A stretch of DNA of 64,000 bases from Centroscyllium fabricii (lineage: Eukaryota). The stretch's first letter is position 1; each line of letters starts with the position of its first letter. The stretch is from the NCBI GenBank assembly GCA_051313645.2, contig JBNRSN020000003.1:422034001-422098000 (forward strand). Reading direction: 5' to 3'. Shown here piece by piece: positions 4,149-61,227 of this stretch. The notes beneath the pieces were generated by a model, which saw only the letters and a list, made by a program, of their open reading frames with translations, was not told the DNA's origin and ran no database searches. The position numbers and the translations under genes were made by a program.

Positions 4149-4553
4149 AACATAGAAACATAGAAACTAGGAGCAGGAGTAGGCCATTCGGCCCTTCGAG
4201 CCTGCTCCGCCATTCAATGAGATCATGGCTGATCATCCAAACCCAGCACCCCGCCCCTGCCCCCTCCCCATATCCCTCGATCCCTATCGAGCCTGCATCG
4301 ACACATATCCCACCCTATCCCCGTAACCCCACCTTTTCAATCCCCCTAACACTAAGGGTCAATTTATCATGGCCAATCAACCTAACCCGCACATCTTTGG
4401 ACTGTGGGAGGAAACCGGAGCACCCGGAGGAAACCCACGCAGACACGGGGAGAATGTGCAAACTCCACACAGATAGTACCCGAGGCTGGATTTGAACCCG
4501 GGTCTCCAGTGCTGTGAGCCAACAGTGCTAACCACTGTGCCACCGTGCTGCCC
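4149..4553 (-). mobile_element. Full-length HE1-like V-SINE
   Basis: On the minus strand: tRNA-like head with A box (GTGGCACAGTGG) and B box (GGTTCAAATCC), V-domain core and CR1-derived tail. Confidence 0.9.
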
Positions 4554-26547: not shown

Positions 26548-27582
26548 CAGGTTGAGCACCGTTAATCCGGTAACCGAAAAGCCGGCAACTTCAGTCGTCC
26601 GGCACAAATTGCCCTAACTGCCCTGCGCATGCGCAAAATGGCCGCCACGATCGAGGCTTCGGCGAATGATCTGCGCATGCGCTCGCCGGCACATGCGCAG
26701 ATCATTCGTCGAAGCCTCAATCGCGGTGGCCATTTTGCGCATGCGCAGGGCGACAAGACAGGAGAGGACAGCAGAGCCCAGTCCAGCCTTTGATCAGCCA
26801 GCAGGCCCGGCACATTCACACTCACCGTCCCGATGACTTCAGGAGACGCCGGCCCCATGGAAGGCAGCAGCGACTTGGACTTGGGAGGCTGAGAGCTCCG
26901 GCGCCTCAGAGTCGCTGGGAGACGAGGAGGAGGCCTTCTCCGACCTGTCGGATGAGGAGCAGATGCCCCACATCGGTGTTTAGCGCGTGCCCTCAACCGC
27001 GCTTGAAACGGGGACAAGTCCTGCCTGGCTGGCCTTGATTGCGTGGGGGGGGGGGGGGGGGGGGGGTGGTGGCAGGAGGTTTGTGATTGGTGGAATGACC
27101 CGTCAATCCCGTGGCTGGGGGAGGGGAGGAGCCTTGTGATTGGTGAAGCAGCCGGTCAATCCTGCGGCTAGGGTGATAGGAGGCTTGTGATTGGTGGAGA
27201 GGCCTGTCAATCCCGTGGCTGGGGGGGAACAGGAGGCTTATGATTGGTGAAGCAGCCTGTCAATCCTGTGGCATGATGTGGAGGTGCCGGTGTTGGACTG
27301 GGGTGGACAATTGTAAGAAGTCACACAACACCAGGTTATAGTCCAACAGGTTTATTTGAAAGCTTGGTGATTTCAAATAAAACTGTTGGACTATAACCTG
27401 GTGTTGTGTGAATCCTGTGGCAAGGAGAGGGAGGCGATTTTGTGATTGCAATGTTATGCGCATGCGCGCGGCCATTTTGAATGGCGCGCGCATGCGCACT
27501 GGCCAGCTTCATTCTTCCGTATTTTTCGCTATACCGGCCAGGGCCCAGTCCCGCCCGTGCCGGTATAACGGTGCTCAACCTG
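26548..27582. mobile_element. Tc1/mariner MITE family A, long subtype with nested insertion
   Basis: TA|CAGGTTGAGCACCGTTAAT...TAACGGTGCTCAACCTG|TA; contains NRF1/YY1-like motifs, four GATTGG..GTCAATCC units and the insert at 27274-27410. Confidence 0.88.
27274..27410. mobile_element. Short PLE-derived element (second family) with fold-back end
   Basis: Starts GATGTGGAGGTGCCGGTGTTGGACTGGGG like 35653 and 55082; ~40-bp inverted repeat; 12-bp TSD AATCCTGTGGCA (27262-27273, 27411-27422). Confidence 0.75.
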
Positions 27583-27858
27583 TACTGCAGATGCTGGAAA
27601 TCTGAAATAACAACAGAAAACGCTGGAGAAACTCAGCAGGCCAGGTAGCATCGGTGGAGAGAGGAACAGAGTTAATGTTTCAGGTCGATGACCTTTCTTC
27701 AAAACTGGAGAAGCCAGGAGTGGGGATAGATTTTAAAGCTTGTGGGGGCTGGGGAAGCTGGGGGGGGGGGGGGGCTGAAAGAACAAAGGAAAGATCAGTG
27801 ACAGGCTAGAAGGTAAGAGATCTTCGGAGAAATTGAAGGAACACAGGATGGCTCAGAA
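27583..27858 (-). mobile_element. Penelope-like 3' terminal remnant
   Basis: Closely similar to 667-930, including the poly-G tract and the hammerhead-like motif. Confidence 0.8.
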
Positions 27859-35652: not shown

Positions 35653-35821
35653 GATGTGGAGGTGCCGGTGTTGGACTGGGGTGGACAAATGCAAGAAGTC
35701 ACACAACACCAGGTTATAGTCCAACAGTTTTATTTTAAATCACAAGCTTTCGGAGCGTCTGCCCCTTCTTCAGGTGAAAGAGAAGTTGATTTAAAGAACG
35801 CACATATGGAAGGGAGAGTAC
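35653..35821 (-). mobile_element. Short PLE-derived element (second family)
   Basis: Same sequence as the 27274 insert; 11-bp TSD TCCTTAATCCC (35642-35652, 35822-35832); contains a hammerhead motif. Confidence 0.78.
35740..35777 (-). ncRNA. Minimal type I hammerhead ribozyme motif
   Basis: Minus strand TCAC CTGAAGA A GGGGC agac GCTCC GAAA GC TT GTGA: core, stem II, stem I TCAC:GTGA and palindromic AAGCTT stem III. Confidence 0.65.
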
Positions 35822-50930: not shown

Positions 50931-51298
50931 CAGAAACACACAAGATAGGAGGAGGAGTAGGCCAGTCGGCCCTTCGAGCCTGCTCCGCCATTTTGATGAG
51001 ATCATGGCTGATCATCCAAACCCAGCACCCCCCTCCTACCCTCTCCCCATATCCCCCGACACCCCCAACTCTAAGAACTACATCTCACACACAACTCATG
51101 GGCAATTTTTTAGTATCTCCAATTCCCCTAACCTGCATGTCTTTGGGTGGTGGGAGGAAACCGGAGTACCCGGAGGAAACCCACACGAACACGGGGAGAA
51201 CATGCAAACTCCACGCAGAGGTGTCCCGGGCCAAGCAGGATTCGAACCCAGGAGCTCCTTATTGCGAGGCAGCAGTGCTAACCACTGCGCCACCGTGC
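50931..51298 (-). mobile_element. V-SINE variant (tRNA head, V-like core, CR1 tail)
   Basis: Minus strand GGCACGGTGGCGCAGTGGTTAGCAC...GGGTTCGAATCC, core GTGGAGTTTGCATGTTCTCCCCGTG and CR1-type tail; middle region differs from the 4149 and 60829 copies. Confidence 0.85.
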
Positions 51299-54808: not shown

Positions 54809-55788
54809 CAGGTTGAGCACCGTTAATCCGGTAACCGAATAGCCGGCAGCTTCAGTCTGCCGGCACAAATTGCCCCGACTGCACTGCGCATGCGCAAAAT
54901 GGCAGCCGCCATCGTGGCTTCAACGAATGATCTGCGCATGCGCCGAGCGCATGCGCAGATCATTCAAAACAGCTGCGGGTGTTTTGAATGATCTGCGCAT
55001 GCGTCGCCGGAAGGTTAGCGCATGCGCAGATAATTCAATACGGCCGCCGGTTATTTTATCGATAACTGTAATTGAAGCCATGATGTGGAGGTGCTGGTGT
55101 TGGACTGGGATGGACAATTGTAAGAAGCCACACAGCACCAGGCTGTAGTCCAAAAGTCCCACTCGAAATCACGAGCCTTCGGAGCGCCGCTCCCCCATCA
55201 CCTGACGGGGAAGCGGCGCTCCGAAAGCCCGTGACCCCAACTAAAACCGTTGGACCACAGCCTGGCGCCGTGTGACCTCTTACAATTGAAAGCAAAACGG
55301 GATTGGATAAATTGCCCCCCCGCCGACCCGCGCCACCCTCCTTTCCACCCCCCCCCCCCCCCCCCGGACCCGTGCCACAATCCTTTCCCCCCCCCCCCCC
55401 CGACACAATCCTTCCCCCCCCCGACACAATCCTTTCCCCCCCCCCCCCGCCCCCGGACCCGCGCCTTCCTCCTTCCCCCCCCCGAGCCTTCCTCCTCCCC
55501 CACCCCCACCCCCGACCCGCGCCGCGCCACCCTCCTGCCTCCCCCCGCAAGACCGGCCTTTCACTGCTGCCCGACAGCCACAAAAGCCTGAGCCCATCAA
55601 AAAACTTCGCGGCGGCCAATATTGGACGATCTGCGCATGCGCGCGACAGCCAATAACAATGTTGCGCGCATGCGCGCTGCCATTTTGACTGGTGCGCATG
55701 CGCAGTGTCCAAACTCGTTCTCCCGGTTTTTTCCATTTCCCGGCACGGGCCTGGTCCCGCCCGTGCCGGATTAACGGTGCTCAACCTG
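54809..55788. mobile_element. Tc1/mariner MITE family A, long subtype, inserted in CR1
   Basis: TA|CAGGTTGAGCACCGTTAATCCGG...CCGGATTAACGGTGCTCAACCTG|TA perfect 23-bp TIR; contains a PLE-derived hairpin insert and C-rich tracts. Confidence 0.92.
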
Positions 55789-56999: not shown

Positions 57000-57605
57000 T
57001 TAAGTCCCATTAATTTCTCCAGTACTATTTTTTTTTACTAATATTAATTTCTGTCAGTTCCTCATTCTCGCTAGACCCTTGGTTCTCCACTATTTCCAGG
57101 ATGTTTTCTGTGTCTTCTTCCTTGAACACCATACACCTGGCATTTGGCATATCTTTAGCAATCGTTTATTAATTTAATCATTTGTAACTTCAAAATTATT
57201 TTTTGGTTGTTTGACCAACATACCTTTTTAATTAGAACTAAATGGATTAATTAATACATAAACTTTAATCATTGGGCAAGAACTGATAAATCGAGCAAAG
57301 CTATAGTTTATTAAAAGTTTGCACAACTGTGGGAAATAAAACCTGCATTGAAGACATACAAACATCATTACCAAATCATTTACTCAGGAAAAATGTAACC
57401 ATTGAACAATTATCATCCTAAAAGTTCTGTTAGTGCAAAATGTGGCAAAGTCAAAAACTCCTGAAATTTTGTAGATTACAATATCCTCTTAACATTTTGA
57501 CAAGATGAAAATAGTCTGCATTGGTCATCAGAAAAAGGGACACGTTCTTGTGTTGCATTAAACTACAATAGCAGATCCATGCCAAAAAACTCTCATCCTT
57601 CGAAA

Positions 57606-57850
57606 GAAACATAGAAATTAGGAGGAGTAGGCCATTCGGCCCTTCGAGCCTGCTCCGCCATTCAATGAGATCATGGCTGATCATCCAAACCCAGTATCCC
57701 GCCCCTGCCCTCTCCCCATATCCCTCGATCCCTATCAAGCCTGCATCAACACATATCCCACCCTATCCCCGTAACCCCACATATTCAATCCCCCTAACAC
57801 TAAGGGTCAATTTATCCTGGCCAATCAACCTAACCCGCACATCTTTGGAC
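57606..57850 (-). mobile_element. 5'-truncated HE1-like V-SINE
   Basis: Near-identical to 4155-4403. Confidence 0.88.
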
Positions 57851-58237
57851 TCTCCACCCCGCCCAAACCCATGTGATCACCTGGGAGAGGCGAAAAACCA
57901 GATAAAAAACCCAGTAGCCAATTTGGGAGAAAAAAAATCAGGAAAATTCCTCTCTGACCCATCTAGGCGATCGAAAACTGGTCCAGGAGATCACATGGTC
58001 GATCTGAACCTAGCCTCACGTCCACTTACCTGCCCGCTCACCATAACCCCTAATTCCCTTTACTTCCAGGAAACTGTCTATCTCTGTTTTAAATTTATTC
58101 AATATAGTAGCTTCCACAGTTTTAAAATTCCCAATAGTTACAATCCTTCAAGTTCCTCTTAATTTACAAATACACAAATTACAACTAGATATAAATTTCA
58201 CCAGATAAAATTTAATTAGACTCAAAGATATAAAGTA

Positions 58238-60828: not shown

Positions 60829-61227
60829 GACACGGTGGCACAGTGGTTAGCACTGTTGTCTCACAGCACTGGAGACCCGGGTTCAAATCCAGCCTCGGGT
60901 ACTATCTGTGTGGAGTTTGCACATTCTCTCCGTGTCTGCGTGGGTTTCCTCCAGGTGCTCCGGTTTCCTCCCACAGTCCAAAGATGTGCGGATTAGGTTG
61001 ATTGGCCATGGTAAATTGACCCTTAGTGTTAGGGGGATTGAATGTGTGGGGTTGCGGGGATGGGGTGGGATATGTGTCGATGCAGGCTCGATAGGGATCG
61101 AGGGATGTGGGGAGAGGGCGGGGGCGGGGTACTGGGTTTGGATGTTCAGCCATGATCTCATTGAATGGCGGAGCAGGCTCGAAGGGCCGAATGGCCTACT
61201 CCTGCTCCTAGTTTCTATGTTTCTATG
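60829..61227 (+). mobile_element. Near full-length HE1-like V-SINE
   Basis: A box GTGGCACAGTGG, B box GGTTCAAATCC, V-domain and CR1-like tail TTTCTATGTTTCTATG. Confidence 0.9.

Follow-up and report, generated by a model that had tools for sequence, protein, structure and literature searches.

Genomic copies of a Penelope-like hairpin with the probable imprint of ADAR editing, spread by a MITE in Centroscyllium fabricii

Edited sequences in RNA and in genomes

Clustered hypermutation has been described in several systems that resemble, each in part, the locus studied here; statements about the papers cited in this article apply to the accessible portions of their texts. The closest are the avian retroviruses RAV and ALV, in which A-to-G hypermutation of the ADAR type was recorded in the 1990s (reviewed in PMC12925331). 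There, as we propose here, an edited double-stranded RNA that included an inverted repeat was reverse-transcribed, and roughly half of its adenosines had been converted. Those cases were isolated viral clones, whereas the present one concerns an endogenous, non-viral retroelement in which the changes are heritable. Dozens of separate events seem to have contributed, a parent locus can be identified, and a DNA transposon amplified the focal insert. Vertebrate retrotransposons edited by APOBEC (PMC4866542, PMC2873906) also carry clustered hypermutation of one type fixed in genomic copies, but the change in that case is G>A, arises from deamination of cytosine in cDNA and has no tie to RNA pairing. 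One of these surveys (PMC4866542) filtered for G-to-A changes, and ADAR is absent from its main text. Hyper-editing of A to I in RNA inverted repeats (PMC4365171) yields clusters that are restricted to stems and depleted for a 5'G, as we find; there the change stays in the RNA and a 3'G is enriched, whereas here it is in the DNA and a 3'G is not enriched.

The insert itself resembles the Penelope-like elements (PLEs), which possess a pLTR, a minimal hammerhead and a tail of 30-40 nt (PMC11167929, PMC4209133). As in those elements, the two end positions lie 34 nt apart and both strands seem to be primed, and an ORF with a reverse transcriptase (RT) and a putative GIY-YIG-like motif is accompanied by a hammerhead-like motif; neither editing nor edited progeny is described in the accessible text of those two papers. 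Finally, Steele and Lindley (PMC11817618) have hypothesized that ADAR-edited RNA is copied back into DNA. Their proposal concerns somatic, in-place events read from cancer signatures, while ours concerns germline retrotransposition that would have left the discrete copies seen here. In the literature searched, which consisted mostly of papers available without subscription and taken without supplements, we found no account of a genome in which retrotransposon copies bearing ADAR edits have become fixed.

A C-rich hairpin within a MITE

The DNA analyzed, called the window below, is a stretch of 64,000 nucleotides. Table 1 lists the features of the hairpin and of its host, a non-autonomous DNA transposon (MITE) that, from its TA duplication, we take to be of the Tc1/mariner type. 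The extent of the arms and of the 34-nt leader given in a preliminary description of this DNA holds.

Table 1. Positions in the window of the hairpin, its host transposon and the comparison copies
Feature	Positions	Strand	Basis or remarks
Host MITE, non-autonomous DNA transposon, TA-flanked	54809-55788		23-bp perfect terminal inverted repeats (TIRs) at 54809-54831 and 55766-55788
Target-site duplication, left copy, 11 bp, one change relative to the empty-site form	55070-55080	+	Empty-site and older filled MITEs
Unpaired PLE 3' tail, 34 nt	55081-55114	-	0/9 T changed; unpaired in the fold; two RT start sites (PMC11167929)
Left arm, pLTR, sense on the minus strand	55115-55199	-	11 T>C, 3 A>G
Mirror hammerhead motif, altered, interrupted by the loop junction	about 55169-55203	-	Reading by eye
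Relic minimal hammerhead motif, core altered	55198-55234	+	Reading by eye against unedited kin
Loop of the hairpin, 4 nt	55200-55203		Sequence and fold
Right arm, pLTR, sense on the plus strand; its end is the inner RT start site	55204-55288	+	12 T>C, 4 A>G
Target-site duplication, right copy, first 5 nt common to the arm end	55284-55294	+	Sequence
Unedited sibling hairpin insertion, same subfamily, comparison copy	27274-27411	-	Sequence comparison
Unedited single-arm sibling, second subfamily, comparison copy	35653-35818	-	Sequence comparison

As a reference we took, at each position, the base most frequent among 30 unedited copies of the family, 13 of which extend over the inner stem. Against this reference the stem carries 23 T>C changes, affecting 11 of the 23 T in the left arm and 12 of the 25 in the right. 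There are also 7 A>G and a single G>A; of the six transversions, four are at columns that vary within the family. The earlier count by eye (over 20 T>C, about 7 A>G and few transversions) was accurate, as was the statement that the leader lacks T>C (P=0.008), although this tail does have one C>T and one G>A. The same asymmetry is evident without any reference, because the two arms may be compared with one another. On the plus strand the hairpin contains 17 C.A mismatches and no G.T (P=1.5e-5), which means that RNA of the minus strand would form a G.U-rich stem of 85 bp. The predicted fold of this RNA is indeed an 85-bp stem with many G.U pairs (-156.8 vs -108.7 kcal/mol). The minus strand is also the sense strand of the element at this locus, with the tail at its 3' end, and it is the strand on which the changes read as A>G.

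Each of the A>G changes on the plus strand lies opposite a T>C (7/23 vs 0/25, P=0.003). A T that precedes C, equivalent to a 5'G on the edited strand, is changed in 3 of 10 cases compared with 20 of 38 for all others, a difference that is not significant (P=0.29), but the claimed sparing of such T residues is strong when other loci are pooled (see below).

The C-rich bases are not an assembly error, since all 40 of the scored genome matches to the stem were 100% identical and contigs from three of four short-read runs cover it; raw reads therefore back these bases. Both hammerhead cores were said to have been destroyed. With the core positions that we take to apply, damage to both is seen in the sequence, and it was probably inconsequential. 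Rfam returned no hammerhead match anywhere in the window. It did return a mir-5595 match at 26652-26719, far under the gathering score, which corresponds to an internal palindrome of the MITE. The sibling hairpin at 27274-27411 also lies within a MITE (26548-27583) that has the same terminal repeats, and it has its own target duplication.

Relatives with T>C clusters in a Penelope-like family

The family to which the insert belongs is very large: one 28-nt motif from the arms has 112,125 matches in the genome. Copies are commonly fold-back hairpins with target duplications; they have two alternative end points separated by 34 nt, and they contain a CUGANGA/GAAA hammerhead-like motif. A longer copy (L058) encodes a 383-amino-acid frame with YIDD, cut by the end of the locus, that matches RVT_1 with E=1.9e-5, under the curated cut-off. 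The RT frame is followed by YLI...WYIGET, which we presumptively read, by eye, as a GIY-YIG-like endonuclease motif and for which Pfam has no match. Two ORF fragments from another copy (L220) matched no Pfam family, and a PDB search gave no significant match. In PLEs two internal RT start sites bracket the tail, and the PLE protein extends both strands (PMC11167929). Judged from these sequence features, the insert family fits a Penelope-like assignment. Within a set of unedited hairpins (L061-L090) the two arms frequently carry different bases at fixed, subfamily-specific positions, suggesting that they were copied from different templates.

Additional loci were located with two patterns, each of which forced two T>C changes and which gave 66 and 58 matches. 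Thirty were fetched per pattern, and removal of 10 duplicates or MITE copies left 50 distinct loci. The further hairpin-restricted clusters envisaged in the preliminary description do exist: at least four additional, unseeded T>C were present in 34 of the 50 loci (one, L157, qualifies only through a noisy alignment), compared with a background of about 0.4 T>C per arm. Pooled over these 34 loci, trimmed alignments contain 364 T>C, 27 G>A, 17 A>G, 13 C>T and 20 transversions, a ratio that is inflated by the choice of loci with seeded T>C and by the T>C threshold. The context bias and the sparing of the tail, where 9 of 161 T are changed, are unaffected by this choice.

On the edited strand the fraction of sites changed depends on the 5' neighbor, with values of 0.49 for U (62/127), 0.47 for A (218/461), 0.25 for C (74/301) and 0.09 for G (18/192). 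This bias is highly significant (P=5e-24) and remains so when alignment columns are treated as the units (P=1.5e-4), and the avoidance of 5'G agrees with published ADAR sites, at which an upstream G is depleted (PMC4365171). Human hyper-editing additionally has an enrichment of 3'G (same source), which is absent here (80/207 vs 327/873, P=0.75; odds 0.86 when adjusted for the 5' base) in a comparison that draws on few columns and in which the one UAG site is biased by seeding. Among 22 loci that possess arms of both orientations, 17 have at least four T>C in each, and none has four A>G in any arm. This last result rules out twin priming from edited sense RNA alone, which would place T>C in one arm and A>G in the other. 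The genome contains adenosine-deaminase family genes at five places, a count made at the family level that takes ADAR, ADAT and ADAD together.

More direct evidence on the order of events comes from 18 loci that share an 85-nt spacer, nine of which were aligned. One of these, L200, is unedited, and both copies of its target duplication are preserved; at other sites, the L200 spacer is carried by L196 and by the L193 group. In L196, T residues are changed in the two arms that flank the spacer (17 of 50 and 13 of 25), whereas the spacer itself and a third arm, with 33 T each, have none changed, and in the predicted fold of L200 minus-strand RNA it is these two flanking arms that pair, across the spacer. 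L194 has 15 of 50 T changed, with 8 sites in common with L196. Single-arm edited inserts (L167, L168) lie between the two copies of a target duplication with no partner arm, and in L167 the flanks are unedited. Since no partner is present inside the duplication, these inserts must have been edited before insertion. Most of the L200 daughters (L193-L210) adjoin a short tandem repeat and have one edit set in common, suggesting that a single edited copy multiplied along with the satellite.

Parents were not found in every case. For the two other hairpins that were tested (L124, L150), the assembly holds no parent with the same loop junction, the matches being to themselves. Furthermore, five hairpins (L114, L121, L124, L131, L150) have the tail on the side from which the edited strand cannot prime, and are exact at both RT start sites. 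A second cDNA primed on the other strand, together with a jump from one side of the stem to the other in a longer hairpin RNA, might account for both the wrong-side tails and the missing parents.

Several other sequences bear a resemblance to these. A SINE-like family in the window (4151-4547, 57601-57851 and, on the minus strand, 60831-61227) has a CR1-like end with 4-6 T>C relative to five CR1-like copies in the window, and a further copy (50931-51219) has 12 T>C among 20 differences; this family is possibly another fossil of edited RNA. In L142 (1240-1785) and in L129, L123 and L153 (near 1400), edited stretches start at the truncation of this SINE-like element and resemble chimeric retrocopies produced by template switching. 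The T>C changes of L142 seem to extend into the CR1 flanks of the hairpin, and in L153 (about 1400-2300) the hairpin lies within a stretch like an LTR-retroelement integrase that is seemingly C-rich on the same strand.

Spread as DNA and the origin of the edits

The focal hairpin is one member of a large transposed set. Thirty loci were fetched from the 40 identical matches, and all had the MITE TIRs, TA on both sides and differing flanks. Filled MITE copies that share the insert junctions number 1,797, with 897 in forward and 900 in reverse orientation, and the exact focal variant is present in 109 copies. All 20 filled copies that were sampled possess the edits, so that these are ancestral and are shared with other MITE copies. 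These numbers bear on two suggestions made earlier. The minus strand had been linked to MAPKAP1 pre-mRNA, and exons resembling SIN1/CRIM (MAPKAP1-like) do lie on that strand, 48-77 kb beyond the window. However, a single-locus origin tied to this gene is ruled out by the identical copies and by transposition in both orientations, so that the place of this copy relative to the gene is incidental. Local rewriting at the focal locus is likewise unsupported, because the edits are older than the spread of the MITE.

Empty-site MITEs are also present. A search with flanks from the focal subfamily gave nothing, because those flanks had drifted, but older flanks gave eight, each with a single 11-bp target that is perfectly duplicated in the older filled subfamily. 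When the native bases at the junction were searched for among filled MITEs, the one match itself contained 16 T>C. Taken together, the empty sites, the target duplication and the lack of an unedited filled MITE suggest that the insert came in already edited, or else that an unedited form never spread, and that it then multiplied as DNA.

The older subfamily also separates two layers of change. A less-changed version of the insert was first indicated by short reads, and 180 matches yielded 59 loci, comprising 53 of the older subfamily, 2 truncated older pieces, 2 intermediates and 2 of the focal type. In the majority sequence of 19 older copies there are 19 T>C, whereas A>G is absent. Compared with this subfamily, the focal lineage has a further 4 T>C, one G>A and 7-8 A>G, the last at A.C mismatches; two additional changes, a T>G and an A>T, likewise restored pairing. 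The A>G changes are thus a later layer, which followed the original T>C. ADAR1 favors an A opposite C (bioRxiv 10.1101/2025.01.02.631069), and a second round of editing on the other strand is therefore possible, but the T>G and A>T are corrections that ADAR does not make and they favor arm-to-arm repair in DNA. Either process, repair within the DNA hairpin or another cycle of RNA editing and reverse transcription, may account for the later layer. The focal MITE subfamily also has, at window positions 55310-55550, a C-rich microsatellite in place of about 250 nt that are present in older and empty copies.

Judged from sequence comparisons, the history of the insert is very probably as follows. 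A PLE hairpin RNA of the minus strand would have formed a double-stranded stem, in which adenosines would have been deaminated to inosine, presumably by ADAR. A reverse transcriptase, probably the PLE's own, would then have copied the edited RNA into a MITE in the germline, with an 11-bp duplication, and the MITE with its edited insert would have multiplied as a DNA transposon to about 2,000 copies. The central proposal of the preliminary description, that an edited minus-strand hairpin RNA was reverse-transcribed, is thereby supported: the spectrum is not a strand-symmetric shift from AT to GC that extends beyond the stem, raw reads contain the bases, and the idea that the C-rich form is a separate monomeric subfamily is ruled out by the MITE context of the identical copies, by edit sets specific to each locus and by the parent and daughter data.

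An alternative that still requires both ADAR and RT is that edited RNA rewrote existing loci in place by RNA-templated conversion. The junctions of L124 and L150, which have no parent, would be understandable on this basis, as would hairpins of either orientation that are exact at both ends and flanked by target duplications, and in vitro the PLE protein of an anole can nick the pLTR of its own element (PMC11167929). Rewriting in place is nevertheless unlikely in general, although it may have produced some of the hairpins that have no parent or a wrong-side tail, given that L200 and its daughters occupy different sites, that the single-arm insert L167 has no local partner and unedited flanks, and that no unedited filled MITE was found. 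Nor would a parent hairpin be needed if adenines had been deaminated on DNA, for instance by ADAR acting on the cDNA in an RNA:DNA hybrid formed during insertion, and ADARs do edit DNA in model DNA:RNA hybrids (PMC12925331). This is much less probable still. The edits track RNA:RNA pairing, sparing the tail, loop and spacer, which would also have been within the hybrid, and both arms are changed on one strand although cDNAs started from two ends would be opposite strands.

Ordinary mutation, whether by GC-biased conversion between the arms, by selection for a stem that tolerates G.U or in a separate C-rich subfamily, is barely credible and is already largely refuted. Correction between the arms probably did act afterwards, as the A>G, T>G and A>T of the focal lineage restore pairing, but it does not explain 17 C.A mismatches with no G.T, or the absence of A>G beside 19 T>C in the older subfamily. 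Selection for G.U tolerance is further opposed by the single G>A in the stem, since C>U would be equally tolerated. Edit sets that differ from locus to locus, the 5' context bias and a background of about 0.4 such changes per arm also argue against ordinary mutation.

RNA editing is usually thought to end at the RNA; these copies would represent edits that have been turned into inherited DNA. They suggest that an inosine-rich RNA is still capable of retrotransposition. An unedited parent with separately edited daughters provides an internal control, and the system offers a direct measure of how often edited RNA enters a germline. It also counsels caution with repeat variants that have shifted toward GC, as some may be fossils of editing. 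More broadly, it is likely that A-to-I editing has acted here as a recurrent, heritable mutagen, in which hairpin-forming PLEs supply double-stranded RNA, ADAR edits it and retroelement RTs write it back, possibly hundreds of times, sometimes together with adjacent host DNA or repeatedly within a lineage. The result would be a fossil record of the specificity of germline ADAR, in a lineage for which there is little RNA data.
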